A stretch of 64,000 nt of DNA, taken from Verrucomicrobiota bacterium. GTDB lineage: Bacteria; Verrucomicrobiota; Verrucomicrobiia; Limisphaerales; UBA9464. Shown here piece after piece: positions 35,838 through 55,146 of the stretch (the first letter of the stretch is position 1; the number at the start of each line of letters is the position of its first letter). A model generated the notes under the pieces. It searched no databases and was not told the DNA's origin. It saw only the letters and a program-made list of their open reading frames with translations. Location: assembly GCA_046346705.1 (NCBI GenBank), contig JAXMHR010000010.1, positions 141,602 through 205,601 of the forward strand. Direction: 5' to 3'. A program made the position numbers and the translations under genes.

Positions 35838-35861
35838 TTCGTATTTTGCCGTCCCGTCCCC

Positions 35862-37394: not shown

Positions 37395-37395
37395 C

Positions 37396-38571
37396 ATGAA
37401 CACCATGCCCGCCCTCGCAACCCCGTCCGCCGGACCGCGACATCGTCTGGATCCGACGGCGGTTCGCGAGTTGACCATGCCCGCAATGCTGGCGGTGATT
37501 TGGGTATTCTTTGCCCTCGTATCGCCACAGTTCCTGAGCGCCCGCAATCTTTCGATGCTGCTCATTGAGCTTTCCATCACGGCTACTCTTGCCGTCGGAA
37601 TCCTCCTCGTCCTGATTCCGGGTCACACCGATCTGTCCGTGGGCGCGGGGGCGGGCCTGCTCGGCGGCATCGCCAGCGTCCTCGTCTTTCGATTCGGATG
37701 GCCCGCCCCGGCGGCGTTGCTCGTCAGCCTCATTGCCGGCTTCCTGCTTTACCTGGGCATGGGCCGGTTCATTGTCCGTTACCGCATCCAGGCATTTATC
37801 GTAACGCTCGGAGCGATGCTGGCGTTTCGTGGAGGATTCTGGCTCGTCATTCGTAGCGTCACGACCCCGGTGGTGCGGGGTGGCGAATCGAATCTCTATT
37901 CCCTGCTCACCACCTACTATCTCCCGCCGGCAGCAGGATTGATCCTCGCCTTTCTGGTGATGGGCGTTCTTGCCATTGTGGGATTCCGGGGACGTCAACG
38001 TCGCCAGTCAGCCGGTGCCTTGGTTGAACCTGCGGAGCTGGCGTTTCTCAAAGCATTTATCGGAGCCCAGGGAATCCTGTTGGTCGTTCTGATCTGCAAC
38101 CAATACCGGGGCCTTCCCCTGTCGTTCCTCATCCTGTGTGCCGTGGCACTGTCGATTCACGTGGTCACCCAGCATACTCCGTTTGGGCGGTACCTCTACG
38201 CCATTGGAGGAAATGAAGAGGCCGCCGTGGTGTCCGGAATTCCGACCCAACGAACTGTGACGACAGCCTTCCTGATTCTGGGAGGCATTGTCGCCGTCAC
38301 GGGATTCATGGCGACGGCGTACTCCGGGGCGTCCACCACCACGGTCGGGGATCTGATGGAGCTCGACGCCATCGCCGCGTGCGTCATCGGCGGGACGAGT
38401 CTGAAAGGTGGACGGGGAACGGTCCTTGGTGCGCTTTTTGGAGCCTTGATCATGGCGAGCCTTTTGAACGGGATGACTCTGCTCAGTGTGCTGCCGGAAA
38501 CAAAATACATCGTCCGTGGACTTGTCCTCGTATTCGCAGTCTGGATGGACGTCACGTTCCGGCGGCGTTAG
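37396..38571 (+). CDS. xylH: Sugar (xylose-type) ABC transporter permease
   Basis: About 10 predicted TM segments. Branched-chain/sugar permease motif 'GGTSLKGGRGTVLGALFGALIM'. Starts 2 nt after the xylG stop. Confidence 0.75.
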   Translation: MNTMPALATPSAGPRHRLDPTAVRELTMPAMLAVIWVFFALVSPQFLSARNLSMLLIELSITATLAVGILLVLIPGHTDLSVGAGAGLLGGIASVLVFRFGWPAPAALLVSLIAGFLLYLGMGRFIVRYRIQAFIVTLGAMLAFRGGFWLVIRSVTTPVVRGGESNLYSLLTTYYLPPAAGLILAFLVMGVLAIVGFRGRQRRQSAGALVEPAELAFLKAFIGAQGILLVVLICNQYRGLPLSFLILCAVALSIHVVTQHTPFGRYLYAIGGNEEAAVVSGIPTQRTVTTAFLILGGIVAVTGFMATAYSGASTTTVGDLMELDAIAACVIGGTSLKGGRGTVLGALFGALIMASLLNGMTLLSVLPETKYIVRGLVLVFAVWMDVTFRRR

Positions 38572-39130: not shown

Positions 39131-40390
39131 TCAACCCAAGAACCAAAAGAACACGATGGCAATTGTCGTCGGTCCCAATGCGCCCTGAAGGAGACCCAAG
39201 GGACTGATTCCTTCCTGCCCAAATACTCGGGATCCCTGAAGGATTCCAATTCCGGCGGGATTCGGTGCATTGGCGATGACCGTCAAGCCGCCCCCGGTGA
39301 CGGCGCCCGCCACGAGCGCGTAGCGCAGTGGCTCCGGCAGTCCCTCCACCAGGGTCCCGAGATAGGTGAGCGCTGCATTGTCGGTGATGGCCGTAAGTGC
39401 GGTGGTTCCAAAGAACAGGGCATTTCCGCCAAGACTTTGGATGAGAGGCTTCAGCCAGTAACCTTGGAGCGAGCCCAGTGTGACCAAGCCCGCGAGGAAA
39501 AATCCCACCAGAAGTCCCTCCCGGAGCTTCAACGGGTCCTGATGCGCCCGGGTCGCCGTTACCAAGCCCAGGAAAAGGACGAAGACGCCAAAGAACACGT
39601 CAGGATGGTGCGCAAAAACCACGACCATTCCGAGAAACCCAAGGTGTATCGACGTTAGCCAGGACGGAACCGGCTGACTCAATCCCGTTTCAAAGGAAAT
39701 CGTCGAAAGTTCCCTGCGAAACCAGGCCACCGTGAGGAGGGTGGAGGTCAAACACGTCGCCGCCGCCCGCCAGCCAAAATGAGTGATCATGAAGCCCGCA
39801 TCCCAATGCCAGCGTGACGAAACCATGAGTACGGGAGGCGCGGCGAAGTGTGTGAGTGTTCCGCCCACGGACACGTTCACAAACAGAAGTCCAAGCGTCG
39901 CATACGCAAATTCCCGGCTGATGCCACGATCAAAGTACCTTTCCTTAAGCAAGAGTGCCAGAAGGGTCATGGCCGCGGGTTCGGTGATCAGGGAACCGAG
40001 CAGGGGTCCCAGCGACAATGCGGCCACGAAAAATGCGACCGATGGCGGACCGGGAACAATCCGGGAGGCGCCTTGAATCAGGATCTCTGCGAAACGTACG
40101 ACCGGACGCGTCGCAGCCACGACCATGATCACCAGGACGAACTTGGGTTCGGAATAGTTGAGTCCCTCGACGTAAGCCGTCGCCTCGTGAAGGGACCCTC
40201 GGAGGAGCGCGATCCCGAGAAACAGGGCGGCGGCCCATAGCCCAAAGACCACCTCGGTTTCCGCGAGGAAATGGAGCAGGGATTCCTGAACCGACCCTGG
40301 TGCGAATCGATGGGACCACGCGGCAAACCGCCGGACTGCGAAGGTATGGACGACCGCAAGGGCAAAAAAGACCGTGGCCAGATACTCCAT
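39131..40390 (-). CDS. Polytopic membrane transporter, putative Na+/H+ antiporter family (PF07399/DUF1504-like)
   Basis: 419 aa, about 11-12 hydrophobic segments, internal two-fold repeat character, 'ITDNAALTYL' and 'IANAPNPAG' motifs. Family call is from memory of similar ~420-aa proteins. Confidence 0.5.
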   Translation of the reverse strand: MEYLATVFFALAVVHTFAVRRFAAWSHRFAPGSVQESLLHFLAETEVVFGLWAAALFLGIALLRGSLHEATAYVEGLNYSEPKFVLVIMVVAATRPVVRFAEILIQGASRIVPGPPSVAFFVAALSLGPLLGSLITEPAAMTLLALLLKERYFDRGISREFAYATLGLLFVNVSVGGTLTHFAAPPVLMVSSRWHWDAGFMITHFGWRAAATCLTSTLLTVAWFRRELSTISFETGLSQPVPSWLTSIHLGFLGMVVVFAHHPDVFFGVFVLFLGLVTATRAHQDPLKLREGLLVGFFLAGLVTLGSLQGYWLKPLIQSLGGNALFFGTTALTAITDNAALTYLGTLVEGLPEPLRYALVAGAVTGGGLTVIANAPNPAGIGILQGSRVFGQEGISPLGLLQGALGPTTIAIVFFWFLG

Positions 40391-40690
40391 TGGCGGCCGG
40401 GTCTACCGGATTTGCGGGCGGCCGTCGAGCCGCGCAGAACGGAGCACCTCGCGTCCCGACAAACTGTCCTTTCCTTGCCGCAATAGTGACCCTGCGCAAC
40501 GGGGGCGCGCCTCCCGAAAGGAGGCAGCCTGAGCTTGAACTTCCGCTGTAGAACTGGGTAATTTCTCTTCCGGCCCCGCCCCAAAGCACGCGTTCCGGGC
40601 GCGGTCTTCCCAGCCGAACCCAGGCCCTCGGGAAATGCAGTTTGCGCTTCTCTCCCTCAGACTCGGTTTGGGAAGGCCTCACGCCTTACC

Positions 40691-40774
40691 CATTTATTTA
40701 GCCAATAACTTTCCAATTATTGTCGTAAGTATTTTTTCACTTGCCGCGTTTCTAATGTAGGTAATTACTCACTT
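40691..40774 (+). promoter_or_regulatory. AT-rich island immediately upstream of the giant ORF (candidate promoter/leader)
   Basis: By my count 26 of 84 nt are G+C (about 31%) in an otherwise G+C-rich window. Contains TTGCCG, then 17 nt, then ATTACT only 5 nt before the ATG. No Shine-Dalgarno sequence. Confidence 0.3.
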
Positions 40775-43700
40775 ATGCCCACGCTCTGTCGCGCCCGACT
40801 TTTGGTGCTGGCTTTCCTCCTGTTGGTGCCGTCTCGCCACCTCCTGGCCGACCCCCAGGTGTGGCAGATAGGCACAAACAATCCCTCCGGAGGCGGAACC
40901 GGCGAATTCTCTGCACAAAATGGCGTGAACGACGCCCCGCCGGGATCCTCGACCGCATTGGACGACGACTACTATACCGCCGGTACCTATCCCGCAGGAT
41001 TCAACGGCCTCGCCTCGACGCTGACCGTAGCGGCAAATGAGCCTTGGCTGAACTGGGAAAGTGCCCTGACGCTGGGTGACAAGACGAATAGGATCCACCT
41101 GAATTTGACCAGCGCCCAGGTGACGCCTTCTTCATGGTTCCGTCTCTCGTTTGAGTTTGCCTCGGCCAATGGGACCTCAAACGGGGTTAGCCTCGGATTC
41201 GGGGATCACGACATTCTCGTTCAATTCAAAAACGCGGCCGGCACGCCGACGGTCCTGTTCTCGAATCGGATTTCCGCCGCCACCAATGTTGTCCTCGAAT
41301 TTCCGATGAGCTCGGTGGTCTCAACGGCCGGCGCGAACACCATCGAATTCATCCGGACTGGCCCGTCGCCCGCCGGCACCTCCTACTACATTGCTTTCGA
41401 TTACGTCCTTCTTGAGGCGGATGCGGGAGGAAACACCCCGCCCGTTCCTACTCCAGTGGGAACCGTGGCCGTCAATGAATTGGCTCCCTTGACCCTCAAT
41501 TTGGCGACTTCGGATACGGACTCCACGGCAGCAGAGCTAGTTTACGAATTGATCTCCGGACCGGTCGGCTTGGCGGTCTCCCCAACAGGGACGGTCACCT
41601 GGACGCCCACCGAGGCGCAGGGACCCGGCTCCTACGGTGTCGCGGTGCGTGTCACGGACGCCGGTGTGCCGCGAATGAGCGCGACCAACAGTTTCACCAT
41701 TACCGTCAACGAACTGAATACGGCGCCGACCACCGCCACCATCTTCAACAGCACGTTTGACGAAGGATTCAATTACACGGCGCAGATCAATGTCTCCGAC
41801 ATCGATCTGCCCGCGAACACCTTCACGTACACAATTCTCTCCGGACCGGCCGGACTCACCGTTTCCCCCACCGGTCTCATTTCCTGGCCCACCACCGAGG
41901 CTTCCGGACCCTCCGTAAACACGGTCTCGATCAAGACTTCGGACAGCGGTCCGGGAAATCTTAGCGTGACCAACACCTTTACACTCACGGTTCGCGAGGT
42001 CGTAACGGCTCCCGTTCTTCCCGTCCCCGCCACAGTGACCATCGACGAAGGAGCTACCTATTCCTTCCAGCTCGCCGCAACGGATGCCGACCTCCCCGCC
42101 AATACCCTCACCTATGCACTCGTCTCCGGACCGGCCGGCCTCACGGTCAGTACCGGCGGACTCATCAACTGGGTGACGACGGAAGCCACCGGTCCGTCGA
42201 CCAATATCGTTCAGGTCAAGGTGACCGACAATGGCGTCCCAACTTCCAGCACCACCAACCAGTTCCAAATTGTGGTTCGAGAGGTAAATTCGGCGCCAGT
42301 ATTGCCTGCAGTCACGACCCAGTATGTGGATGCGCTCTCCCCCATGGCGCTCAACATCCCCGTCGTGGATTCCGACCTACCCGCGAACTCTCTGACGTTT
42401 TTCCTCCAAAGTGGGCCGACTGGATTAACCCTCAGTTCCTCGGGCCTTGCGTCCTGGGTGCCGACTCCTTCGCAGATTCCATCCACCAACGTCGTGGTCT
42501 ACTCGGTCACCGATGGGGGGTCTCCGCCACTGTCCGCCACCAATCAATTCACGGTGGTGACCCGGACTGCCAGCCTCCGGTATCTCTGGCAAATCGGAAC
42601 TGAAAGCAACCCGGGAAGTTCCGCGGAATTCAGTGTGCAGAACAATGTCAATGACCTCGCACCCGGAAAGGTGACCCGCCTTGCTTCCGACCCCGAGTAC
42701 AACGCGGTTTCGAATCCCACCGCGGATGACGATTATTATTTTTCAGGAATCTATCCTGCAGGCTTCAACAAGCTGACTTCACTGATTCAGGTTCCCAACG
42801 ATGAACCAAGCACCGCCTGGGAACACAGCCACACCTTGGGGGATCTGACCAACCGAATTCACTTCCGCCTCGGTCCCGCCCAGGTCGTCGGTTCCTCCCA
42901 GCTTCGATTTTCCTTCAAGTTCCATACCGCCGCCCGGTATTCGAACAATGTGGTCCAAGGGTTCGGTGACCATGACATGGTGGTACGTTTCCGGAATGGA
43001 AACGGAATCGAGACAATCCTTTACTCGGACCGCATTTCCCAAGCGACCAACATCAGTCTCCTGTTCGGATCCACCACAGCCCAGGCGACGCTCGGCCCCA
43101 ATACGATCGAAATCGTTCGGACCGGCCCCACGGCCGTGAATACCTCGTATTGGATCACCTACGACTATCTCCGACTCGAGGCGGACGCCAGCGGCAACAC
43201 CTCGCCCGTGCCAACACCCGTGGCAGATACTCCCATCGATGAAATGGTTCCATTCTCACTGGCCCTCGGAGCGACGGATTCCGATGTACCGGCGCAGTCG
43301 TTGCTTTTTGAAAAAATTTCAGGTCCGGCAAACCTGACTATCAGCCCCACGGGCCAGCTCGCCTGGACCCCGGATGAGTCCGAAGGGCCGGCCACTGTAC
43401 CTGTTAGTGTTCGAATCACGGATTCAGGTTCACCTCCGCTGAGCGTCACCAACACCTTTAATTTGATAGTTCGCGAGGTGAACCGGCCGCCGGTCCCCGT
43501 GGCCGTCGGAACCCAGACCATCGATGAACTGGTGCCCTGGTCCCTGACGCTGTCCTCCAGCGACCCGGACCTGCCCGCGAACTCCCTGAGTTACTCAAAA
43601 CTGTCCGGCCCCGGAAACCTCGCGGTCAGTACTGCCGGCGTTGTCACATGGACCCCGGCGGAAACCGACGGTCCCGGAACCTATCCGGTGAGCGTCCTGG

Positions 43701-46700
43701 TCACAGATTCAGGGAGTCCTGCCCTCAGTGCCACCAACAACTTCAATGTGACGGTTCGCGAGATCAATCTGGCGCCTTCCATCGTATCCGTAACCCAGCA
43801 GGACGCAACCGAGCTTAGCGCCTTCTCCGTCAATCTGACCGCTTTCGATCCGGACCTGCCCGCCAACGCCCTCAGTTTCTCGCTCGTGTCCGGACCAACG
43901 GGTCTAACCGTGAGTCCCGGAGGGACCGTCAATTGGACGCCAGCCGAAGATCAGGGGCCTTCCACCCAAACCGTCGTCGTGAAGGTGACCGACAACGGCA
44001 ACCCCAATCTTAGCGGAACCAATTCCTTCGTCATCGTCGTTGCGGAAACGAATGCCCCGCCCGCGTTTCAGCCCATCGCCGATGTCACCCTTGACGAACT
44101 TACACTTCTGAGTTTCTCAATCACCGCGACGGATCCCGACATTCCGGCAAATTCACTTTCCTACGGACTCGTCAGCGGGCCTGGCGGATTGACGGTTTCC
44201 GCAGCAGGCTTAGTAACCTGGACTCCGACCGAAGCCCAGGGCCCCTCCACCAACCTCGTCCTCGTCCGCGCAACCGACAACGGCGTCCCATCCCGCAGCG
44301 TCACCAATCAGTTCACGGTCGTTGTCCGTGAAGTAAACACGGCACCCACAACGGTGTCCCTGGGTGTCTTGGCTCTCGATGAGCTGACTTCCCTCTCCGC
44401 TTCGGTGACGGCCTCCGATACTGACGTGCCTGGCAACACGCTGACCTACCAGCTGATTTCCGGCCCCACCGGGCTGACCGTCTCCTCCTCCGGAGCCGTG
44501 GCATGGAACCCCGGGGAAACCGATGGGCCATCCACCAACGCCGTCCTGGTCCGGGTTACCGACAACGGATCCCCCCAGTTAAGTGCCACCAATCAGTTTT
44601 CGGTCATCGTCCGCGAAGTCAACAGTGCGCCGTCCATCACGTCCCTCCCCCCCACCACGATCTCCCAACTGGCGCCACTCTCCCTCCAACTGACTGGCGT
44701 CGATCCGGATCAACCGCTCAATTCCCTGTCCTTCACCCTGCTCTCCGGGCCCGCCGGACTCAGTGTAAGCTCGGGAGGACTTGCGACGTGGTCGCCCTCC
44801 GCGGTGTTTAATCGGACGACGAATCAATTCATCGTCCGGGTCACCGATTCGGGGATCCCATCGCTTAGTGGCACCAACCAGTTCACGGTCATTGTCGCGG
44901 AGCCCGAGGCGCGGACGGTTTGGCAGATTGGAATTGCCGACGATCCCCAGGTGCTCCCCTACAATCCGGACGCCGAATTCGGGGTCCCTAACGGATTGGT
45001 GGATTCCGCCCCCGGAGCAATTACTCCTCCCGCGGGCGGTCCGCCGCCGGCGGACGACGACTTCTATTTCGCCGGGACCTATCCCGCCGGCTACTTCAGT
45101 CATGCCACCGACCGGGTGGTGACGAACGACGAGCCGGATTCCGCATGGGAACGGGCCCTCACCTCTTCGGATCCGCTGAATCGGTTCCACTTTCTCCTGA
45201 ACAGCGGCCAAATCGGCCTTCGCTCCCACCTCTTTCTGACCGTTGGATTGCCCCTCGGCGGATCGGTGGTGGGAGGCGTTCCTGCGTCCGAATTCGGAGA
45301 ACATGATTTTGTCGTCCGCTTCCGAAACGGAATTGGGGGAATTACCGTTCTTTACTCCAATCGGCTGACGTTCGGAACCAATCTCGTGTTGGATATTCCC
45401 GCGACCGCAGTCGGCGCAACGCTGGGAGCAAATGCCATTGAACTGGAACGGACGGGTCCCTCCGCCCCGGACACGACCTACTCCCTCTCCTTTGATTATG
45501 TTCGCCTCGAATCGGTCACCGGGGCGAACGAACCCCCAACCGTCGGAAGCATTCCGCAGCTCACTGTGGACGAGCTGACGACACTGAACTTCACGATTCC
45601 GTCTACCGACAGTGATACGCCCCAATTCAACCTAATCCACACCCTGCTCTCCGGGCCATCCGGGCTGCAGATCAATGCGTCGGGAGGACTGGTGTGGACC
45701 CCGACCGAGGCCCAAGGACCCTCGACGAACACCGTTGTCTTCCGAGTCACGGATGATGGTGTGCCGCCCCTGAGTTCGACCAACCAACTCACGGTCGTCG
45801 TCACGGAAGTCAATACGAGCCCCACTCTCACACCGGCTCCCGATACCATCATCAGCGAAGGGTCCGTCCTCAATCAGACGCTCGGAGCAACCGACTCGGA
45901 CCTTCCCTCCAATTCCCTCACGTATTCCCTAGTCTCCGGGCCGCCGGGACTCACGGTTTCGCCTTCGGGTTCGATGCAATGGACGACCGGCGAGGGCACG
46001 GGGCCGGTCTCGGCCACGGTTTACGTCCGGGTCACGGACAACGGTGAACCCCAACTCAGTTCCACCAATGCCTATACGGTGGTCGTCCTCGAGGTCAACC
46101 AACCTCCGGTCATGGACCCGGTTGCCGACCAGACCCTGGACGAACTGACCCCACTATCGATCAATTTGACCGGCAGCGATGCTGACGTCCCGGCGAATAC
46201 ATTGACCTACTCACTGGTGAGTGGCCCGGCCGGCATGAACGTTTCCTCTGGAGGCCTCCTGACCTGGATTCCCGCGGAAAGCCAAGGGCCATCCTCCACG
46301 CTCATCAAGGTCCGAATCTCGGACAACGGCACCCCCCCGATGAGCGCGACAAACCAGTTCACGGTCACCGTCCGGGAAATCAATACCGGCCCCGTCCTTG
46401 CCGCAATTCCGAACCAGAACATCAGTTCCGGAACCATTCTCAATCTCACCCTCTCTGCAGTCGACTCCGATCTGCCTCCGAACCCGCTGACCTACGCCCT
46501 CGTGTCGGGCCCCTCGGGGATGACGGTCAGCACTGCTGGCCAGCTGACTTGGAATCCCGGCAACGCACAGATCCCCTCCACCAACACGGTCCAGGTCAGC
46601 GTAAATGACAATGGAACTCCTGCACTGGGCATGACCAATCAGTTCACTGTGGTCGTGACAGGAACCGCACCCCGCTTTGTATGGGCCATTGGAACCAACG

Positions 46701-49700
46701 ACGCTCCCGGTACCGCTGCTTCGAAGGAATTCACCCCCCAAAACAACAAGAACGACGTCAAACCCGGCTCCGCTTCCCTCCTCGACGACGACTACTACAC
46801 GGCCGGCACTTATCCTGCCGGATTCAACGGACTCACCTCGCCTCTCGTCGTAGCATCCGATGAAGCCTGGCTGAACTGGGAAAGCAGCCTGACCCTCGGC
46901 GACAAGACAAACCGTCTTCATCTAGTTCTCGACCCCACCCAGGTAACACCCGATTCGATCTTCCGACTTAGTTTCGAGTTCTATCTTGGTCAAATGACGG
47001 TCTCCAATGTCGCCTCGGGCTTTGGCGATCACGACATCCTCGTGCTGCTCAAGAACGGTGTTGGGGGATCGACCCAGTTGTTTTCCGGGCGAATCTCCGC
47101 GCCGAGCACAAACATCATCACGCTCCCGATGAGCGCTGTTGGCGCGACTGCCGGAGCCAACACCATTGAGTTTATCCGCACCGGGCCCACGGCGCCCAGC
47201 ACCTCCTATTATATAACCTTTGACTACGTTCTCGTTGAAGTGGATGGCGGTGGAAATCTCCCACCGATTCTTCCGGTTTTGCCTCCCATCAATGTGAACG
47301 AACAAACGACCGTCGCCTTGGATCTCAGCGCCACTGACAGCGACACCGCCAAGAATCAGCTCGTGCACACGATGCTGAGCGGACCCCCGGGTTCCACGCT
47401 GACCACCGCCGGACAGTTCACGTGGCCCACCACGGAGACCAATGGAAACTCCTCTGCTACCGTGGTGGTCAAGGTCACGGACAATGGAATCCCGAACCTG
47501 AGTGCCACCAACCAGTACACGATTAATGTCCTCGAAGTGAATCGTGTCCCCGTATTCGCGGCGGTTCCACAGATGGTGGCGGACACCCTGACTCCTCTTT
47601 CCATCTCCCTCAGTGCCACGGACCCGGATATCCCGGTGAATGCCCTGTTCTACGACCTCGTTAGTGGTCCGGACGGCCTTGTCGTTTCACCGGCGGGCAA
47701 GGTGACGTGGATGCCGTCACCGAGCCAGATTCCATCCACCAACACCGTACTGGTCCGGGTAACCGACGACGGAATCCCCCCCCTCAGCGCCACCAATCAG
47801 TTTGTCGTGGTGACCCAGCCTGTGGTGGATCGTGACGCATGGCTCATCGGCGTGGACGACAGTCCTCTCATTCTTCCCTACAACCCGGCTGGTGAGTTTT
47901 CCGCACCGAACTATTTAAATGATTTACCCCCCGGGTTGGTGACCCGGTTACCAGGAGATCCCCAGTACAACGCAGGGAGCAATCCGCTACGGGACGATGA
48001 CTTCTATTTCACCGGAGTCTACCCTGCTGGCTTTAACGGTCTGACCAGCCAGTTACTCGTGCCAAATGACGAGCCATTTTCAGCGTGGGAATCGATGCTG
48101 ACCCAGTCAGATAGGACCAATCGATTCCATTTCCGACTGAACGCGGGACAAATCAGCGCCAGTGGCCATCTACAGCTCCGATTCGAGTTTCCTTCCGCAT
48201 TCATCATCAGCAACGGAGTGGCATCCTCGGTCTTTGGAGACCATGACATAGTGATCCGATTCAAAAGCGGTGCAGGCGATAGTACTGTGCTTTACTCGAA
48301 CCGCGTGAGTCAGCCCACGCAGGCCACGATCGAAATACCCGCCACAAACATCACGGCGACTCTGGGAGCGAACTCCATCGAAATCGTCCGCACCGGCCCG
48401 AATCCAACATCCCCTCAATATTACCTCTACATGGACTATGTCCATTTGCGGGCCGATGCCGGAGCGCGCCTGGATGCCGACGGCGACGGTCTGCCTCTGG
48501 CCTGGGAGAGAGACAATTACCTCGACGACAACAATCCCGCGGATGCGAATTCTGATTCCGACCATGACGGCTTGACGGCTCTTCAGGAATATAATGGCGG
48601 AGTAAATTCCACCGACCCGCGGCGCCCCGATTCCGACTTCGACGGCTTGACGGACGCCCAGGAACGACTCTTGGGTACGGACCCCAACAAGGCCGACACC
48701 GACGGCGACGGACTCACTGACTTCGAGGAGGTCAACGGGGTCCCCGCAAGTTCGCCCCTCTTGGTCGATTCCGACGGGGACGGTTTCTGGGATGCGGTCG
48801 AACGTCGCAGGGGTACCGATCCCATGGACCCCGCGAGCAAGCCCACCCGCTTCCGCGGGGCCGTCGGAATCAGTTTTGTCTCTACCGGGGGTCTGGAGGG
48901 AAGGATTGGGCCCAATGCGCTCGCCGGCGTCATTCCGCAGCTCAACTGGAACGAGACCGCGCCGTTGACTCTCGGAAGCAAGCCCTCCGGAAACCTCTCT
49001 GACATCGCGTCTCCAGTCGTTGGGCAATTAGTGCGAAGTGACGGAACGAATCTTCCAAACCTATCCTTCTCCTGGACTGCGGACGGTGCTGCGTCAACCG
49101 GAAACAGCGGCACACCGGACAGCCAGTTGATGAACGGCTACATCCGGGCATCCTCGTTGATGCCGGCGACCTTGACGGTCAGCAACGTGCCGTTCTCCCA
49201 GTATGATGTGTACGTCGTGGTTGGAGCACCCTCGGATCAATATCAAGGACGCGTCCGCCTCGGGACGGACCCGAGCACAGATCGCCTATTCCAAGCACTG
49301 AGCACGGCCCCACAGTCGGAGTTCGTCGATATTCCTGCAGGATCGGCCCAAAACCGGCCCGCGAACGTTGTTCGCTATTCGGGTCTGACCTCCACCGCAT
49401 TTTCCGTGACCGTTACTCGTGTTTCGGGAACCAGTGTTGGAATCCACGCCATTCAGATCGTTGACACCCAACTCGACAGTGATCTCTCCGGTATTCCCGA
49501 CTGGTGGGAAGTCAAATATGCACTTCAACCGGGTTCAGCGGCACTGGCCGCGAGTGACTCGGATGGCGACGGTCTCTCCAATATTCAGGAATACCTGCGG
49601 GGAAGCGACCCCCGGGTTGCCGATACGGATGGCGACGGCATCCCGGACGGCCAGGAAACCGCAGTCAGCGCCCTGAAATGGGACACCGACGGCGACGGTA

Positions 49701-50656
49701 TCTCCGACAAGGCTGAACTTACCGCGGTGTTTCCCACGGACCCCTCCCTCCAAGATACCGATGGTGACGGAATCTCTGATTCGGTCGAAAACCTTTATCG
49801 ATCCGATCCAACCTATAATGAGGCGAGCAGCCCCACCTTCTATGGGTGGACTCCAGTTTATCGGAGTATTTCCGCCCAGTGGGAATGGAATCTGGAGAAC
49901 GTCCAACTCGTATGGGATCACGGCGTCGGCGCTCCTGCCCCCACGGACGTCAACGAATTGGAATTGCTCAACCTTTCCGTGCGCAACAGCAACGGAGCGG
50001 ATCCGCAAACGTTCCAGATGGTGCTGCGCTATTTCCGGGGAGTCGTCACCCACTCGTTCTCCAGTGACGCCTTGGGCGGATTCAGCCTCCCAGACGGTCC
50101 CGGAAAGAATCTTCGGGACGAACCCGCATCATCCCGGCTCGACGATATCACGGGTGCCCTCGGATTCAGTGGGTATGGTCCAGCGGATGTCTCCGACCGG
50201 CTGCGGTTCCGGCTCTTTGCCCAAAGGGGAACCGGGAACTCGTGGAATCTGAACTTCGAGATTCGAAACCAGACCAAGAACCAGGTGGTCGTTTCCCGCA
50301 ATTTCCTCAATTGCACCGCGGCCGCATCCGTGGACGCCGGGACAGCAGCCTGGATGGATTCCAACGGCACTACCAATCGGGTATCATTCTCCACCAGCAC
50401 GGGCATCGCCCTTTATTTCTCACCGACACCCCTCGAAACCCGCCCGCAATTTGCAGCGACCCGAGATTCGGATGATGATGGAATTCCAGACGTCTGGGAG
50501 ACCGCGCACGGCGGAAACCCTCTGATTGCCGGAGATGCCTTAAAGGACGTCGACAATGACGGCTTGAATGCCCGGGATGAATACTCTCGCCGGAACCGAC
50601 CCGAAGAATCCGGATTCGGACGGAGATGGGATTCGAGATGGGACGGAGTATCGTAA
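40775..50656 (+). CDS. Giant secreted modular protein: 5 unassigned ~200-aa modules + 16 cadherin-like/He_PIG-type repeats + thrombospondin-type-3-like Ca repeats; probably continuous with the DUF1800 ORF
   Basis: Signal peptide 'MPTLCRARLLVLAFLLLVPSRHLLA'. Single 3,293-codon frame. Repeat architecture was read directly from the translation (see the repeat features and findings). Confidence 0.85.
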   Translation: MPTLCRARLLVLAFLLLVPSRHLLADPQVWQIGTNNPSGGGTGEFSAQNGVNDAPPGSSTALDDDYYTAGTYPAGFNGLASTLTVAANEPWLNWESALTLGDKTNRIHLNLTSAQVTPSSWFRLSFEFASANGTSNGVSLGFGDHDILVQFKNAAGTPTVLFSNRISAATNVVLEFPMSSVVSTAGANTIEFIRTGPSPAGTSYYIAFDYVLLEADAGGNTPPVPTPVGTVAVNELAPLTLNLATSDTDSTAAELVYELISGPVGLAVSPTGTVTWTPTEAQGPGSYGVAVRVTDAGVPRMSATNSFTITVNELNTAPTTATIFNSTFDEGFNYTAQINVSDIDLPANTFTYTILSGPAGLTVSPTGLISWPTTEASGPSVNTVSIKTSDSGPGNLSVTNTFTLTVREVVTAPVLPVPATVTIDEGATYSFQLAATDADLPANTLTYALVSGPAGLTVSTGGLINWVTTEATGPSTNIVQVKVTDNGVPTSSTTNQFQIVVREVNSAPVLPAVTTQYVDALSPMALNIPVVDSDLPANSLTFFLQSGPTGLTLSSSGLASWVPTPSQIPSTNVVVYSVTDGGSPPLSATNQFTVVTRTASLRYLWQIGTESNPGSSAEFSVQNNVNDLAPGKVTRLASDPEYNAVSNPTADDDYYFSGIYPAGFNKLTSLIQVPNDEPSTAWEHSHTLGDLTNRIHFRLGPAQVVGSSQLRFSFKFHTAARYSNNVVQGFGDHDMVVRFRNGNGIETILYSDRISQATNISLLFGSTTAQATLGPNTIEIVRTGPTAVNTSYWITYDYLRLEADASGNTSPVPTPVADTPIDEMVPFSLALGATDSDVPAQSLLFEKISGPANLTISPTGQLAWTPDESEGPATVPVSVRITDSGSPPLSVTNTFNLIVREVNRPPVPVAVGTQTIDELVPWSLTLSSSDPDLPANSLSYSKLSGPGNLAVSTAGVVTWTPAETDGPGTYPVSVLVTDSGSPALSATNNFNVTVREINLAPSIVSVTQQDATELSAFSVNLTAFDPDLPANALSFSLVSGPTGLTVSPGGTVNWTPAEDQGPSTQTVVVKVTDNGNPNLSGTNSFVIVVAETNAPPAFQPIADVTLDELTLLSFSITATDPDIPANSLSYGLVSGPGGLTVSAAGLVTWTPTEAQGPSTNLVLVRATDNGVPSRSVTNQFTVVVREVNTAPTTVSLGVLALDELTSLSASVTASDTDVPGNTLTYQLISGPTGLTVSSSGAVAWNPGETDGPSTNAVLVRVTDNGSPQLSATNQFSVIVREVNSAPSITSLPPTTISQLAPLSLQLTGVDPDQPLNSLSFTLLSGPAGLSVSSGGLATWSPSAVFNRTTNQFIVRVTDSGIPSLSGTNQFTVIVAEPEARTVWQIGIADDPQVLPYNPDAEFGVPNGLVDSAPGAITPPAGGPPPADDDFYFAGTYPAGYFSHATDRVVTNDEPDSAWERALTSSDPLNRFHFLLNSGQIGLRSHLFLTVGLPLGGSVVGGVPASEFGEHDFVVRFRNGIGGITVLYSNRLTFGTNLVLDIPATAVGATLGANAIELERTGPSAPDTTYSLSFDYVRLESVTGANEPPTVGSIPQLTVDELTTLNFTIPSTDSDTPQFNLIHTLLSGPSGLQINASGGLVWTPTEAQGPSTNTVVFRVTDDGVPPLSSTNQLTVVVTEVNTSPTLTPAPDTIISEGSVLNQTLGATDSDLPSNSLTYSLVSGPPGLTVSPSGSMQWTTGEGTGPVSATVYVRVTDNGEPQLSSTNAYTVVVLEVNQPPVMDPVADQTLDELTPLSINLTGSDADVPANTLTYSLVSGPAGMNVSSGGLLTWIPAESQGPSSTLIKVRISDNGTPPMSATNQFTVTVREINTGPVLAAIPNQNISSGTILNLTLSAVDSDLPPNPLTYALVSGPSGMTVSTAGQLTWNPGNAQIPSTNTVQVSVNDNGTPALGMTNQFTVVVTGTAPRFVWAIGTNDAPGTAASKEFTPQNNKNDVKPGSASLLDDDYYTAGTYPAGFNGLTSPLVVASDEAWLNWESSLTLGDKTNRLHLVLDPTQVTPDSIFRLSFEFYLGQMTVSNVASGFGDHDILVLLKNGVGGSTQLFSGRISAPSTNIITLPMSAVGATAGANTIEFIRTGPTAPSTSYYITFDYVLVEVDGGGNLPPILPVLPPINVNEQTTVALDLSATDSDTAKNQLVHTMLSGPPGSTLTTAGQFTWPTTETNGNSSATVVVKVTDNGIPNLSATNQYTINVLEVNRVPVFAAVPQMVADTLTPLSISLSATDPDIPVNALFYDLVSGPDGLVVSPAGKVTWMPSPSQIPSTNTVLVRVTDDGIPPLSATNQFVVVTQPVVDRDAWLIGVDDSPLILPYNPAGEFSAPNYLNDLPPGLVTRLPGDPQYNAGSNPLRDDDFYFTGVYPAGFNGLTSQLLVPNDEPFSAWESMLTQSDRTNRFHFRLNAGQISASGHLQLRFEFPSAFIISNGVASSVFGDHDIVIRFKSGAGDSTVLYSNRVSQPTQATIEIPATNITATLGANSIEIVRTGPNPTSPQYYLYMDYVHLRADAGARLDADGDGLPLAWERDNYLDDNNPADANSDSDHDGLTALQEYNGGVNSTDPRRPDSDFDGLTDAQERLLGTDPNKADTDGDGLTDFEEVNGVPASSPLLVDSDGDGFWDAVERRRGTDPMDPASKPTRFRGAVGISFVSTGGLEGRIGPNALAGVIPQLNWNETAPLTLGSKPSGNLSDIASPVVGQLVRSDGTNLPNLSFSWTADGAASTGNSGTPDSQLMNGYIRASSLMPATLTVSNVPFSQYDVYVVVGAPSDQYQGRVRLGTDPSTDRLFQALSTAPQSEFVDIPAGSAQNRPANVVRYSGLTSTAFSVTVTRVSGTSVGIHAIQIVDTQLDSDLSGIPDWWEVKYALQPGSAALAASDSDGDGLSNIQEYLRGSDPRVADTDGDGIPDGQETAVSALKWDTDGDGISDKAELTAVFPTDPSLQDTDGDGISDSVENLYRSDPTYNEASSPTFYGWTPVYRSISAQWEWNLENVQLVWDHGVGAPAPTDVNELELLNLSVRNSNGADPQTFQMVLRYFRGVVTHSFSSDALGGFSLPDGPGKNLRDEPASSRLDDITGALGFSGYGPADVSDRLRFRLFAQRGTGNSWNLNFEIRNQTKNQVVVSRNFLNCTAAASVDAGTAAWMDSNGTTNRVSFSTSTGIALYFSPTPLETRPQFAATRDSDDDGIPDVWETAHGGNPLIAGDALKDVDNDGLNARDEYSRRNRPEESGFGRRWDSRWDGVS
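40859..41435 (+). repeat. Unassigned module copy A1 (subtype 1)
   Basis: 'VWQIGTNN..EFSAQNGVNDAPPGSSTALDDDYYTAGTYPAGFNGL..NEPWLNWESALTLGDKTNRIHLNL..FGDHDILVQFKN..LFSNRIS..GANTIEFIRTGP..YYIAFDYVLLEADAGGN'. Boundaries are approximate. Confidence 0.7.
41436..42583 (+). repeat. Run of 4 cadherin-like/He_PIG-type ~95-aa repeats
   Basis: Each unit carries 'D.DLPAN(T/S)(L/F)TY.L.SGPAGLTVS..G.I.W.TTEA.GPS.N.V.VK..D.G....TN.F...VREV..AP'-type landmarks. Confidence 0.7.
42584..43198 (+). repeat. Unassigned module copy A2 (subtype 2)
   Basis: 'LWQIGTES..DPEYNAVSNPTADDDYYFSGIYPAGFNKLTS..VPNDEPSTAWEH..TNRIHFRL..FGDHDMVVRFRN..LYSDRISQ..GPNTIEIVRTGP..DYLRLEADASGN'. Confidence 0.7.
43199..44917 (+). repeat. 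Run of 6 cadherin-like/He_PIG-type repeats
   Basis: 573 aa at ~95 aa per unit. Units contain 'DPDLPANSLSY..LSGP.GLTVS..G.VTWTP.E..GPST..V.V.VTD.G.P.LS.TN.F.V.VRE.N.AP'. Confidence 0.7.
44918..45530 (+). repeat. Unassigned module copy A3 (divergent subtype 2)
   Basis: 'VWQIGIADDP..ADDDFYFAGTYPAGYFSH..TNDEPDSAWERAL..LNRFHFLL..FGEHDFVVRFRN..LYSNRLT..GANAIELERTGP..FDYVRLESVTGAN'. Confidence 0.7.
45531..46678 (+). repeat. Run of 4 cadherin-like/He_PIG-type repeats
   Basis: 383 aa, four units with the same landmarks (for example 'DSDLPSNSLTYSLVSGPPGLTVSPSG', 'DADVPANTLTYSLVSGPAGMNVSSGG'). Confidence 0.7.
46679..47257 (+). repeat. Unassigned module copy A4 (subtype 1, closest to A1)
   Basis: 'VWAIGTND..EFTPQNNKNDVKPGSASLLDDDYYTAGTYPAGFNGL..DEAWLNWESSLTLGDKTNRLHLVL..FGDHDILVLLKN..LFSGRIS..GANTIEFIRTGP..YYITFDYVLVEVDGGGN'. 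Confidence 0.7.
47258..47836 (+). repeat. Run of 2 cadherin-like/He_PIG-type repeats
   Basis: 193 aa, two units ('DSDTAKNQLVHTMLSGPPGSTLTTAG', 'DPDIPVNALFYDLVSGPDGLVVSPAG'). Confidence 0.7.
47837..48462 (+). repeat. Unassigned module copy A5 (subtype 2, closest to A2)
   Basis: 'AWLIGVDD..DPQYNAGSNPLRDDDFYFTGVYPAGFNGLTS..VPNDEPFSAWES..TNRFHFRL..FGDHDIVIRFKS..LYSNRVSQ..GANSIEIVRTGP..MDYVHLRADAG'. Confidence 0.7.
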
Positions 50657-52862
50657 TGGTTCGGATCCAGCAAATCCGGCGAGCCTGCCCCAGTTTGCCG
50701 GATTCACCTGGCCCACAGGAGAAGATTTGAATGGTGACGGCTTGCCCGACGCATGGCAGGCATTTTACCACGCCTTCGAACTCGATCCCTCCGGGGACGC
50801 CGATGGCGACGGTCAATCCAATGCACAGGAAGCCCTTTGGGGAACCAATCCGTTCGACCCCGCGTCCAAAGTCTCTCTTACATTCACTCCGCAGGACCCC
50901 AATGTATTGCTAACCTGGCCCAATCAGCCCGGGAAATCTCAGACTCTGCTCTGGAAGACGGGTACGAATGATTGGGTCCAGTATTCGTCACCTCCGCAGG
51001 TGGACAACGGAATCGCCAGTGTTGTCCTGGAGAACCGGATCGCACTCTATACCAGCGAACTGTATCGATTGGACACCGTCGATCAGGATTCCGATGGGGA
51101 CGGCCTATCGGATTGGGCAGAAATGATTATCGGGAGCGATCCCAATAATGCAAACAGCACCCGTTCCCCGGTTCGCATCCTGAGTTCAACGGGGACCGTT
51201 CTCGGATCTGTGTCCGGCGACTATGCCGCATTCGTCGAGCAAATCCGCCAGGCGCCCAACATGGGGGCCCAAAAGATGTCCAGGGTGCACGCCTCCCGCT
51301 TTCTCCAGCAGGCCACCTTCGGATCCACCTCTTCGGAAATCGCCCGCCTGCAACAAATGGGCTACGCAGCGTGGATCGACGATCAGATCCAGAATCAGCC
51401 GAAAACCCTATTTTCCCCCTACATCCAGGAGATCCGAAAGGACTTTTACGGACCCCAGCTGGACCTCACTTACAGCTACGCATCCTTCGACAATGCCGTT
51501 CGGGCGAACAACATTCTGACGAGTTTTGCGCGAGGCGCGCTTCAGGGGCCCGATCAGTTGCGTCAACGGGTGGCGTTCGCCCTAAGTCAAATCCTCGTAA
51601 CCTCACGTCGCGCCGGCCAGTTCCTCATGTCTCCCCTGGCCATGACGACCTACTACGACATTTTCGTCCGAAGAGCCTTCGACAACTACTATGATATCCT
51701 GAGGGAAGTTACGTTCAGTCCGGTGATGGGACAATATCTCAGCCATATCGGCAATCAAAAGGCTATTCCGGAAATCAACCAGTATCCGGACGAGAACTAT
51801 GCCCGTGAGGTTCAACAGCTCTTTACCATCGGCCTCTGGGAGTTGAACCAGGACGGGACAAAAGTCCTAAATTCTCTCGGAAATCCGATTCCGACCTATG
51901 GCACCCGTGAAATCACTGAATTTGCCCGGGTTTTTACGGGCATGTGGTATGGGGGCCAGCCTTGGGGTACCGGCGGATACAACGACGTGGACAATACGAT
52001 CCCGATGAAGATGTGGACGGACAAGCATGACTTCGATTCCAAGTCACTGCTCAAGGGATTCGTTATCCCCGCTCGCACTCCGAGCGTGACGAACGCCGAG
52101 CGGGATGTCGAAGACGCGCTTCACAGCCTTATCGATCATCCGAACACCGCACCCTTCCTCAGTTCACAACTGATTCAGTTCCTGGTCACGGCCAATCCCT
52201 CACCTGCCTATGTCGCCCGAATCGCTGCGGTATTCGCCAACGATGGATCCGGAAACCGGGGAAATCTCGGAGCCGTCGTTAAAGCCATCCTGCTCGACCC
52301 AGAAGCGCGCGACCCGCGATGGATTGTGGGTAATCCGAGCTACGGGCGCCTGAAGGAGCCGATCCAAAGGGCCATGGCAGTCGCCCGGGTGGCCAATCTG
52401 GGGCGGTATCCCAAGCTTCTTTGGTGGAGTTTCGATGATTTCTACAACGCCTCCCTCCAGGAACCCATGCTGGCGCCGACGGTCTTCAACTTCTTCCATC
52501 CTAAATATCAACCCCCTGGCTTAATGGCGGATGCGGGCCTCGTAGGGCCGGTATTTGAAATTACCGACAGTTACACCAGCATTTCCCTGCCAAACAAACT
52601 GTGGGAGTACACGGAGAAGGGATTCCGGTATGACGCCTATCAGTTCCTGCCCGACTATTCCGAGTTACTGGCCATCGCGGACGACGTGGATGCCTTGATT
52701 GACGAGGTAAACGTGCTCTTCTGCGGCGGACTGATGTCGGGCCAGACCCGGGCTCTCCTCCGGGAGCCTCTCCTGCAGATTCCGTCCTATGACCGCCTGA
52801 TGCGGGTCAAGATTGCCATCTACGTCACGATCGCCTGCCCCGAAGGCGCGGTCCAACGATGA
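50568..52862 (+). CDS. DUF1800 domain protein with N-terminal thrombospondin-type-3-like repeats; lacks its own signal peptide and is probably the frame-shifted C-terminal part of the giant ORF
   Basis: DUF1800-type region from about 51270 ('SRVHASRFLQQATFGSTSSEIARLQQMGYAAWIDDQI', 'YPDENYAREVQQLFTIGLWELNQDGT', 'HDFDSKSLL', 'FNFFHPKYQPPG'). N-terminal 'GTDPKNPDSDGDGIRDGTEYRNGSDP' continues the repeat of the upstream ORF. The two ORFs overlap by 89 nt in different frames. Confidence 0.8.
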   Translation: MPGMNTLAGTDPKNPDSDGDGIRDGTEYRNGSDPANPASLPQFAGFTWPTGEDLNGDGLPDAWQAFYHAFELDPSGDADGDGQSNAQEALWGTNPFDPASKVSLTFTPQDPNVLLTWPNQPGKSQTLLWKTGTNDWVQYSSPPQVDNGIASVVLENRIALYTSELYRLDTVDQDSDGDGLSDWAEMIIGSDPNNANSTRSPVRILSSTGTVLGSVSGDYAAFVEQIRQAPNMGAQKMSRVHASRFLQQATFGSTSSEIARLQQMGYAAWIDDQIQNQPKTLFSPYIQEIRKDFYGPQLDLTYSYASFDNAVRANNILTSFARGALQGPDQLRQRVAFALSQILVTSRRAGQFLMSPLAMTTYYDIFVRRAFDNYYDILREVTFSPVMGQYLSHIGNQKAIPEINQYPDENYAREVQQLFTIGLWELNQDGTKVLNSLGNPIPTYGTREITEFARVFTGMWYGGQPWGTGGYNDVDNTIPMKMWTDKHDFDSKSLLKGFVIPARTPSVTNAERDVEDALHSLIDHPNTAPFLSSQLIQFLVTANPSPAYVARIAAVFANDGSGNRGNLGAVVKAILLDPEARDPRWIVGNPSYGRLKEPIQRAMAVARVANLGRYPKLLWWSFDDFYNASLQEPMLAPTVFNFFHPKYQPPGLMADAGLVGPVFEITDSYTSISLPNKLWEYTEKGFRYDAYQFLPDYSELLAIADDVDALIDEVNVLFCGGLMSGQTRALLREPLLQIPSYDRLMRVKIAIYVTIACPEGAVQR

Positions 52863-52893: not shown

Positions 52894-54354
52894 ATGACAC
52901 CCATCTCACGCCGTGGCTTCCTACGGCAGATCAATTGTGCCGCAGTCGGTTCGGGCGCCCTTCTCAACACCCTGTTGAATCTCAAGCTGGCGAATAGCCT
53001 GACGGCACAGAGTGCGTCCGGACGCAAGGCGCTGGTTTGCTTGTTTCTCAACGGGGGAATGGATTCGTTCAATTTCCTCGTGCCCACCGATTCGCGGTAC
53101 AGCACCTACTCTGCCTCGCGGGGCGTGGCCGGTTCCGAGGGTGGGCTCTCCCTCGCTCAGGCATCCCTCCTTCCGCTGTCCGCGCCCCTTGCCGACTATG
53201 GATTGCACCCTTCCTGTCCACAGATCCGGGACATGGTCAACGGCACCGGCACCCGGTTCTCCGGGAAACGTCGACTTTCGTTTATCGCGAACCTCGGAAC
53301 ACTGGTTCAACCCATCACCAAGTCTCAATACAATGCCTGGGAGCAGGGAAACAATGCCGCGCTACCGGTGCCGCGCGCGTTGTTCTCCCACGCCGACCAG
53401 GCGGAGCACTGGCAGACGGCGGTTCCACAGGGTCTGCGGCACCTAACGGGTTGGGTGGGCCGGGCAGCGGACATCCTGGATGCTGCGAACAACCAAGGAG
53501 GGATCTCCATGAGCATTTCCCTCAACGGCAACAACGTGTTGCAAGTGGGGAATCAAACCCAGCCGTTTGCGATCACCCCCAATGGGTCCCTGACGTTTTC
53601 GGCAGATGCCGGGGGCTCTCCGATCAACCCACTCCAACTCAAGAACAGCACCCTTCGGAACACGCTGGATCAGCATTACGCCAACTTGTTGACTGAATCA
53701 TTTTCCCGGATCACCAAGGCCGCGGACGAGGCCCAGCAATACTTCCAAGCGCAGTATGAATCCCCCGGAGCAAGCCTCGGCGCAACCGTGGATGCCCTGT
53801 TTCCCGCCAGCAACGCCGTCGCGATGACGCTGAAGGCCGTGCTCAAGTCGATCAAGATTAGCAGTCAACTCGGACTGAGCCGACAGAGCTTTTTTGTAAA
53901 CATCGGGGGATGGGACCACCACGGTGAGCTTCTCGACACCCAGGCGGGCATGCTGGCCACACTGGACACCGCCATTGGCGCCTTCCAGTACGGCTTGGAG
54001 CTTCTCGGTCTCGCCAACGACGTCATCACATTCAGCGCGTCCGATTTCGGGCGGACCCTGCGTTCGAACGGCCGGGGCAGCGATCATGCCTGGGGGGGCA
54101 ATGCCTTTGTGTTCGGCGCACCCGTGGATGGCGGAAAGCTGTTCGGCACCTTTCCCAGCCTCGCTCTGGATGGTCCGGACGACGTCGGACGCGGAGGGCG
54201 GATGCTTCCCAGCATGCCGATCGACAAGTATTTTGCCGAACTGATGCAGTGGTTCGGGGTCCCCAGCGGCAACCTCAGCTACGTGCTTCCCAACATCGCC
54301 AACTTCTATAACGTGAACTCCACGACGCCGCCCATCGGCTTCGTGAAGCCATGA
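52894..54354 (+). CDS. DUF1501 domain protein (canonical partner of DUF1800) with Tat-type leader
   Basis: 'ISRRGFLRQINCAAVGSGALL', 'LFLNGGMDSFNFLVP', 'GGWDHHGELL', 'SDFGRTLRSNGRGSDHAWGG'. Confidence 0.85.
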   Translation: MTPISRRGFLRQINCAAVGSGALLNTLLNLKLANSLTAQSASGRKALVCLFLNGGMDSFNFLVPTDSRYSTYSASRGVAGSEGGLSLAQASLLPLSAPLADYGLHPSCPQIRDMVNGTGTRFSGKRRLSFIANLGTLVQPITKSQYNAWEQGNNAALPVPRALFSHADQAEHWQTAVPQGLRHLTGWVGRAADILDAANNQGGISMSISLNGNNVLQVGNQTQPFAITPNGSLTFSADAGGSPINPLQLKNSTLRNTLDQHYANLLTESFSRITKAADEAQQYFQAQYESPGASLGATVDALFPASNAVAMTLKAVLKSIKISSQLGLSRQSFFVNIGGWDHHGELLDTQAGMLATLDTAIGAFQYGLELLGLANDVITFSASDFGRTLRSNGRGSDHAWGGNAFVFGAPVDGGKLFGTFPSLALDGPDDVGRGGRMLPSMPIDKYFAELMQWFGVPSGNLSYVLPNIANFYNVNSTTPPIGFVKP

Positions 54355-54968: not shown

Positions 54969-55146
54969 TCCTGCGAGCATACAGGGTCCTAATTCCGACT
55001 GCTAACCCGGGTTTCGCTCTTCGAGAGGAGGTGGACGCGGATAGGCCGAGGTCCTCCACGCAACCGTCTTGTGCACGGAAGATAGTCACGATGATCCGGA
55101 GGGGACCATCGCTGGTGGAACTCCCAGCCCAAAAGATTAGGTATCA

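Follow-up and report, generated by a model that had tools for sequence, protein, structure and literature searches.

A giant Verrucomicrobiota protein with five putative carbohydrate-binding-module-like jelly rolls is predicted to be the front part of a frameshift-split DUF1800 fusion encoded next to DUF1501

Introduction

Genes for DUF1800 and DUF1501 proteins form a two-gene operon, and such a pair has been described in the company of genes for bacterial chitin synthase and a sugar epimerase (PMC5122149), a co-occurrence that is a weak hint of a link to polysaccharide. According to the citations of PMC3542564 in PMC5122149 and PMC4960237, the two genes are a conserved module throughout the Planctomycetes-Verrucomicrobia-Chlamydiae group. 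Here, we present an analysis of a gene in a 64,000-nucleotide stretch of a Verrucomicrobiota genome (assembly GCA_046346705.1, contig JAXMHR010000010.1, positions 141,602 to 205,601 of the forward strand), referred to as the window and numbered from its first nucleotide. The gene begins with the open reading frame (ORF) at 40775-50656 on the plus strand and is predicted to encode a DUF1800 protein with five copies of a module, here named A, that probably belongs with the carbohydrate-binding module (CBM)-like jelly rolls. To our knowledge, ordinary DUF1800 proteins have roughly 450-700 amino acids (aa) and lack CBM-like arms. The locus shares with the described pairs the DUF1800 C-terminus and, as the next gene, DUF1501 with a twin-arginine translocation (Tat) signal. 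It differs from them in that, in Verrucomicrobiota, A and the domains TSP3, D1, TSP3, D2 and TSP3 stand ahead of DUF1800, and in that the window protein has four more A-plus-stalk units.

The closest described counterpart of A is PF14683, domain III of the polysaccharide lyase family 4 (PL4) rhamnogalacturonan (RG) lyases (Aspergillus aculeatus RGL4; 1nkg, 2xhn, 3njx). It is a beta jelly roll of ~160-200 aa, as A is predicted to be; the two have in common the opening W-x-[IVL]-G...EF and a closing D-[YF]-[IV]-x-L-E strand, align co-linearly from end to end by hidden Markov model (HMM), and match with a Foldseek probability of 1.0. In 1nkg, a calcium ion is reportedly bound in domain III. A differs from PF14683 by an extra N-terminal loop region of ~45 residues with a DDD[YF]Y motif and from PL4 domain III by being multi-copy, by occurring in quite different proteins and by being nearly confined to Verrucomicrobiota; moreover, none of the window copies scores above 17 bits, and a Pfam scan of the 3,293-aa product of the ORF found neither the PL4 N-terminal (catalytic) domain nor the Fn3 domain (fn3_3), to which domain III is C-terminal in PL4. 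CBM35 and CBM6 (the CBM35 region of 5x7o; 5fui) also resemble A in their jelly-roll fold, in C-terminal strands that align and in being appended to many enzymes; however, A scores sub-threshold and is longer than a typical CBM6 or CBM35 (~120-140 aa).

Giant adhesins with Ca2+-rigidified stalks of immunoglobulin (Ig)-like repeats, such as Marinomonas MpIBP and those of the LapA/SiiE type, have their ligand modules gathered at one end and are exported by means of RTX repeats and a type I secretion signal at the C-terminus. Like the window protein, they are very long secreted proteins with tens of Ig-like repeats, calcium motifs and lectin-like modules. In contrast to these adhesins, the window protein has interspersed heads, a Sec signal peptide and a DUF1800 C-terminus, and its Pfam scan gave no match to RTX/HemolysinCabind.

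Results

The ORF at 40775-50656 starts with ATG and has 3,293 codons based on the ORF list and translation of the window. It ends '...DVDNDGLNARDEYSRRNRPEE...' with a stop codon at 50654-50656 and overlaps a second ORF (50568-52862) that opens 'MPGMNTLAGTDPKNPDSDGDG...' and contains TSP3 repeats and DUF1800; the C-terminal 764 aa match PF08811 with 250.7 bits (E 4.1e-74). Homologues from three related genomes align to the window without a break if the reading frame is changed at ~50585, and a homologue reads 'DGDGLNNRDEFLAGTNP' against DNDGLNARDEY and, in the other frame, LAGTDP of the window. Three independent Logan short-read assemblies, retrieved via the downstream DUF1501 protein, are identical to the window over 5.7-14.8 kb but lack a single base, T50585 (context GATGAATAC[T]CTCGCC), which cuts the product between DNDGLNARDEY and LAGTDPKNPDSDGDG. 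The gene upstream of DUF1501 has one uninterrupted call of 4,028 residues on the longest contig (L080), whereas the two shorter contigs end within it. When T50585 is removed from the window in silico, the ORF likewise has exactly 4,028 codons and is free of internal stops. Thus, the stop at 50654-50656 is due to a 1-nt insertion, and 50568-52862 is called as a separate ORF because of the frameshift. By these comparisons, the predicted gene spans 40775-52862 (4,028 codons), and the ORF at 40775-50656 is the front 82% of it, i.e., the first 3,269 codons. T50585 is either an assembly error or a variant of the source of this one assembly. Programmed frameshifting was rejected because position 50585 has no slippery or stop-codon context and the otherwise identical assemblies simply lack the base. 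In the NCBI record of the source contig, the gene is carried as split products of 3,293 and 761 aa. The features of the gene and its operon are as follows.

40775-40849, plus strand: Sec-type signal peptide, aa 1-25, MPTLCRARLLVLAFLLLVPSRHLLA followed by DPQ (read by eye from the translation)
40853-41428, plus strand: A1 module, aa 27-218, putative divergent PF14683/CBM-like beta jelly roll (family profile, E 1.5e-58)
41429-42577, plus strand: stalk 1, four 95-aa Big_9/cadherin-like Ig repeats (Pfam, 285-nt period, spacer length)
42578-43192, plus strand: A2 module, aa 602-806, the copy used for modelling (weak PF14683 match, AlphaFold2, Foldseek)
43193-44911, plus strand: stalk 2, six Big_9/cadherin-like repeats (Pfam, 285-nt period, spacer length)
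44912-45523, plus strand: A3 module, aa 1380-1583 (family profile)
45524-46672, plus strand: stalk 3, four Big_9/cadherin-like repeats (Pfam, 285-nt period, spacer length)
46673-47251, plus strand: A4 module, aa 1967-2159 (copy comparison)
47252-47830, plus strand: stalk 4, two Big_9/cadherin-like repeats (Pfam, 285-nt period, spacer length)
47831-48463, plus strand: A5 module, aa 2353-2563, adjoining the TSP3/D1 tail (copy comparison, homologues, tree)
48464-48847, plus strand: block 1 of TSP3 (DxDxDG) calcium-binding repeats (TSP3_bac, E 7.4e-35 over the tail)
48848-49465, plus strand: D1, aa 2692-2897, beta-sandwich domain (AlphaFold2, Foldseek)
49466-49837, plus strand: block 2 of TSP3 repeats (Pfam TSP3_bac)
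49838-50437, plus strand: D2, aa 3022-3221, third conserved domain (kept beside D1 in relatives)
50585, plus strand: extra T that shifts the frame (homologue alignments, three assemblies)
50568-52862, plus strand: C-terminal part of the same gene, with TSP3 repeats, a small beta domain and DUF1800 at ~51297-52790 (PF08811, E 4.1e-74)
52894-54354, plus strand: DUF1501 gene with a twin-arginine signal (MTPISRRGFLRQ) (PF07394, E 2.9e-27)
54351-54968, plus strand: gene that overlaps the DUF1501 stop with its start and encodes 205 aa, including an N-terminal membrane helix (kept in 19 related loci)

The signal peptide has, by eye in the translation, a basic n-region, a hydrophobic core and an LLA cleavage-like site. 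It is followed in the ORF product by A1-(4)-A2-(6)-A3-(4)-A4-(2)-A5 and the tail, the numbers being those of the 95-aa Ig/cadherin-like repeats; this order agrees with the initial annotation of the ORF. The spacers between the A modules are 383, 573, 383 and 193 aa long, corresponding to 4.03, 6.03, 4.03 and 2.03 units of 95 aa, and the DNA of the stalks has a periodicity of 285 nt. Because spacer lengths and period agree, the previously counted 16 cadherin-like repeats are correct; they also pass Pfam (Big_9, 137.9 bits; Cadherin_3, 73.9 bits).

The frameshift at 50585 raises the question of whether the order of repeats was created during assembly or the locus is a dead pseudogene, and this gene is also flawed on other public contigs: P0014 is 99% identical over ~165 aa and then continues, as a chimera, into aconitase-like sequence, and P0033, from a contig of 102 kb, is a version of A1 and stalk 1 riddled with frameshifts. 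However, the alignment of L080 to the window extends over 14.8 kb, from A2 through A5 and past the tail, and contains a single gap and no mismatch; those of L081 and L082 are equally clean but shorter. The independent loci retrieved cover all but 40775-42892, i.e., A1, stalk 1 and ~105 codons at the start of A2. Moreover, the DNA repeat copies are 60-85% alike over at most 76 nt and, thus, too diverged to collapse, each A copy pairs with a copy from another genome (see below), and the 4,028 codons contain no further stops. Repeat collapse and recent duplication were rejected because Tandem Repeats Finder and a DNA repeat search detected no tandem arrays and no long DNA repeats. Near-identical independent assemblies together with diverged repeats therefore make mis-assembly of the repeats, the caveat attached to the initial annotation, very unlikely, and we regard an artefact or a pseudogene as highly improbable.

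The five A copies have 192-211 aa each, share 42-64% pairwise identity and score E 1e-48 to 1e-58 against the family profile, with which no sixth copy was found in the 64-kb window. A4 and A1 are 64% identical, and both lack a loop of ~14 aa (PGDPxYN). The start motifs and landmark motifs listed in the initial annotation are present in all copies except for three single-residue deviations, i.e., NEP for DE(P/A) in A1, DYVLVEV at the end of A4 and FGDHDIVI in A5. In an alignment of 41 family sequences, the widely conserved positions are W4, G7, F18, P29-G30, D50, D52, Y54, G57, Y59, E76, D89, R93, H95, G173, N175 and D196 (A2 numbering), and the acidic ones among them are D50, D52, E76, D89 and D196. 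The FGDHD motif is kept in the close subfamily only and is, therefore, not the invariant cluster that had been claimed. In a rough neighbour-joining tree, each A copy of the window pairs with a copy from another genome and not with its neighbours, arguing that the A paralogues are old. In the same tree, A5 clusters with the DUF1800-proximal A copy of the L035 locus; its position beside the TSP3/D1 tail is that of the single A in the conserved core protein described below.

To gather relatives of A, we combined a word-indexed search (36 matches) with HMMER run exhaustively on 1.84 billion representatives; the latter found 345 A proteins or clusters at E <= 1e-3 and 106 at E <= 1e-30. When 41 diverse members were scanned singly against Pfam, 15 matched PF14683 and three matched CBM_35 (PF16990), with no other family recurring, and the alignments to PF14683 are co-linear along the whole 160-position model. 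The highest-scoring member, P0140, is a 1,679-aa core-type protein (A profile match, E 6.7e-29), the residues 35-211 of which exceed the PF14683 gathering score of 27 bits (32.0 bits, E 1.4e-7, aligned 1-172 to 1-160 of 160). Among the window copies, A2 scores best (17 bits, E 0.0058, end to end). The CBM_35 scores of A members (16-23.5 bits; best, 23.5 bits, E 7.5e-5) are below the 28-bit cut-off of that family. An NCBIfam scan of the five copies gave nothing relevant. Against the PDB, the 41-sequence profile matched the CBM35 region of the glycoside hydrolase family 31 protein 5x7o (E 0.003) over the C-terminal ~65 residues only, running through the C-terminal G-x-N-x-[IV]...D-Y-[IV]-x-[LV] strands, while profiles of the five copies and of 20 homologues gave only C5a peptidase (E 2.5). 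A phmmer search of the PDB with the best PF14683-scoring member returned chance matches only and did not recover RG lyase; therefore, the link between A and PL4 rests on the Pfam HMM and Foldseek.

An AlphaFold2 model of A2 based on a 20-sequence alignment (predicted local distance difference test [pLDDT] 88, predicted TM score 0.86) is an all-beta jelly roll with about eleven strands after an N-terminal loop region of ~45 residues. A Foldseek search of the PDB with this model gave 42 matches at E <= 1e-3, with query-normalised TM scores (TMq) of 0.25-0.39. They include the RG lyases 2xhn (E 2.1e-4), 3njx (E 4.4e-4; 145 columns, root mean square deviation 4.9) and 1nkg (E 5.2e-4) at TMq 0.36-0.39, values at which other jelly rolls score as well; CBM4, a TNF-like lectin and BcsB are also on the list. 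Based on the profile matches and this model, we conclude that A is probably a divergent branch, without a Pfam or NCBIfam model of its own, of the PF14683/CBM35-like jelly rolls. The statement that the module cannot be placed in any known domain family thus holds for the window copies at curated cut-offs but not for the family as a whole, given the PF14683 matches in 15 of 41 members, the score of P0140 and a fold that agrees weakly. With P0140, A comes close to a confident match to an annotated family, and PF14683 is itself poorly characterised.

Furin P and Cry11 domains match the A2 model at E-values as good as those of the CBMs, and A is found on many unrelated secreted enzymes, as is the case for a cell-wall-binding module. 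A could, therefore, have a structural or self-anchoring role instead, like the furin P domain or Cry domain III, and attach secreted proteins to partner proteins or to a polymer of the cell's own envelope. However, the profile links are specific to PF14683 and CBM_35 rather than P domains, and stand-alone A proteins are already anchored by PEP-CTERM and have A as their only other domain, making this explanation quite unlikely in our judgment.

TSP3_bac (DxDxDG) calcium-binding repeats are abundant in the product based on Pfam. An AlphaFold2 model of D1 (pLDDT 94) is a beta sandwich for which Foldseek gave CBM6 5fui as the best match (E 9.7e-4, TMq ~0.3); the best fold matches, all weak, are CBM6, CBM36, CBM35, Cry domain III and the ligand-binding domains of ephrin receptors. 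Judged by the fold of its model, D1 is CBM6/35/36-like, and the beta sandwich itself is predicted with confidence. D1 as a degenerate sixth A was rejected, the hhalign probability between A and D1 being 0.2%. D2 is conserved adjoining D1 in relatives. A Pfam scan of D1, D2 and the 205-aa downstream protein gave no match.

In a scan of one genome per GTDB species, 78 A loci were returned, almost all from Verrucomicrobiota (Verrucomicrobiales, Akkermansiaceae, Chthoniobacteraceae, Luteolibacter and Haloferula among them). In 32 of the 78, A is followed by homologues of D1, D2 and DUF1800, and the best 25 of these are from 25 different assemblies. Ten core loci were inspected; each has a single ORF of ~1,650-1,920 aa, apart from one of 2,052 aa that runs off its contig. 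Of the related loci, 24 have a DUF1501 gene downstream, and 19 have a counterpart of the 205-aa ORF (54351-54968). Based on these sequence comparisons, the conserved unit is signal peptide-A-TSP3-D1-TSP3-D2-TSP3-DUF1800, followed by genes for DUF1501 and a small membrane protein, and this core design is found in at least 30 Verrucomicrobiota genomes. In the gene without T50585, the PF08811 domain likewise lies in the same polypeptide with the PF07394 gene immediately downstream, while the two parts of the giant gene are in different frames in the window as given; the DUF1501 protein has the Tat signal SRRGFL and matches PF07394 with 96.3 bits (E 2.9e-27). A PDB sequence search with DUF1800 and with DUF1501, a member of the alkaline-phosphatase/sulfatase-like superfamily, gave nothing usable.

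The window protein is, by the same comparisons, predicted to be this core with four extra A-plus-stalk units at its N-terminus, the single-A form being the ancestral one. Other expanded forms are L022 and P0038, with four A modules ahead of D1 and D2. Across the family, the number of A copies per protein ranges from one to five, and copies are spaced by one or more Ig repeats or stand in direct tandem. Because proteins with two to five A modules in either arrangement are common in related Verrucomicrobiota, the head-plus-stalk supermodule is less unusual than had been suggested. A also occurs in a stand-alone form of ~250 aa, which has a signal peptide and is anchored by PEP-CTERM, and joined to unrelated domains, i.e., purple acid phosphatase, glucose/sorbosone dehydrogenase (GSDH), peptidase C25, an LVIVD propeller, cohesin, C-type lectin, InlB B-repeats and DUF1800. 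In this promiscuity, A resembles accessory binding modules. Some metagenome-assembled genomes (MAGs) have many A loci, and one river MAG supplies more than 20 of the 78. The profile search for distribution and partners proposed in the initial annotation thus gave ~345 clusters, almost all of Verrucomicrobiota, together with the fusion to DUF1800 and the downstream DUF1501 gene.

These findings bear on the suggestion that the protein is adhesin-like. It might be a classical giant surface adhesin, the heads of which bind particles, algae or host glycans while the DUF1800 end is a mere anchor or irrelevant. The long Ig-like stalks, the calcium-binding repeats and the lectin-like heads would fit such a function, and the stand-alone A protein with its PEP-CTERM anchor resembles surface proteins. 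However, the tail-proximal A belongs to a core, known from at least 30 genomes, that has a single A and no Ig stalk, is always fused to DUF1800 and precedes DUF1501; the protein was found to have neither a type I secretion signal or RTX block nor an autotransporter barrel or PEP-CTERM tail; and the Tat signal on the DUF1501 partner points at least to the periplasm. We therefore consider an adhesin unlikely and describe the ORF instead as a piece, cut off by the frameshift, of a fusion to DUF1800 whose operon with DUF1501 is conserved.

The 205-aa protein encoded after DUF1501 has an N-terminal membrane helix, a Pro-rich linker and a C-terminal motif DRWGTPLFFHPVG...FDIRSAGPDRRMWTADDI, which we take to be reminiscent of the fold of the type II secretion pseudopilin GspG. 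Three loci (L028, DATJII010000243.1; L044; L050) have the cassette or A modules under the MAG labels Limnocylindria, Proteobacteria or Enterobacteriaceae; errors in binning probably explain these labels better than true presence in other phyla does. Upstream of the giant gene, the window contains a sugar-type ATP-binding cassette (ABC) transporter (periplasmic binding protein, ATPase and permease; 34794-38571, plus strand) and a Na+/H+ antiporter (39131-40390, minus strand); they are not kept beside the cassette in relatives, except for the antiporter in L062. The plus-strand GC skew falls to approximately -0.16 across the giant gene (40001-48000), and the cumulative curve reverses near 38 kb; the cause of the dip may be the C-rich codons of the Thr/Pro/Ser-rich repeats and not a landmark of replication. 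Downstream of the operon, an identical Logan contig has calls for an extracytoplasmic function (ECF)-type sigma-70 gene (186 aa; ~55455-56015, plus strand) and, after it, for a 789-aa VWA/YfbK_C protein (56047-58416, plus strand). The 268-aa minus-strand ORF at 55144-55950, which overlaps the sigma gene, is probably spurious.

Discussion

What may be the function of a DUF1800 protein with five A heads? We lean, by a little, toward the idea that the heads constitute a multivalent arm, stiffened by calcium, which captures glycans for the DUF1800/DUF1501 pair. According to this model, the A modules would be non-catalytic binding modules, most likely for glycans and probably Ca2+-dependent; five of them on semi-rigid Ig/TSP3 spacers would make a long multivalent arm for capture or tethering; and the arm would bring a polymeric ligand to the DUF1800/DUF1501 pair, or hold the protein near it, in the periplasm or at the cell surface. 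The binding "head" suggested for A in the initial annotation is, in our analysis, still the most reasonable reading of the module. For the calcium part, we count the many TSP3_bac repeats and the conserved acidic positions of A; for the glycan part, we count that D1 too is CBM6/35/36-like by the fold of its model. Moreover, the fusion of CBM-like domains to DUF1800 suggests a polymer or glycan as the substrate of the pair.

Several observations weigh against this capture-arm model. None of the five window copies of A reaches a curated Pfam or NCBIfam cut-off, and the four copies other than A2 gave no match to PF14683 in the Pfam scan. The fold matches of A2 are weak (TMq 0.25-0.39) and include jelly rolls that do not bind sugar, i.e., the furin P domain, Cry11 toxins and the birnavirus VP2 capsid. 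A search of the open-access literature on PL4 domain III found no useful description. No glycoside hydrolase, lyase or sulfatase is conserved adjoining the operon in the window and the related loci. The step of delivery to the pair is speculation, the literature on the function of DUF1800 and DUF1501 offering co-occurrence statements only.

More speculatively, the whole cassette, i.e., signal peptide-A-TSP3-D1-TSP3-D2-TSP3-DUF1800 with the Tat-DUF1501 protein and the small membrane protein, could be a new envelope machine that captures and processes a polymer, probably a polysaccharide, with A as the recognition module and the five-headed form as a "fishing-line" elaboration. We consider this conceivable but rather unlikely. 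If true, the cassette would give a first functional handle on the widespread DUF1800/DUF1501 pair.

Altogether, our findings have a practical and a biological side. Because of a one-base frameshift, the public assembly has two annotated proteins where there is one gene of 4,028 aa. A is a real domain family without a Pfam or NCBIfam model, with ~345 clusters almost all in Verrucomicrobiota, and its putative placement among the PF14683/CBM35-like jelly rolls gives annotators a name and a binding hypothesis that can be tested. Because the DUF1800/DUF1501 pair occurs in several bacterial phyla, the CBM-like domains attached to it in Verrucomicrobiota would be small, soluble objects for such tests. 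We suggest that the main interest of the locus, beyond a clean new family for annotation, lies in the conserved fusion of CBM-like domains to DUF1800 as an entry to the problem of what the DUF1800/DUF1501 pair does.

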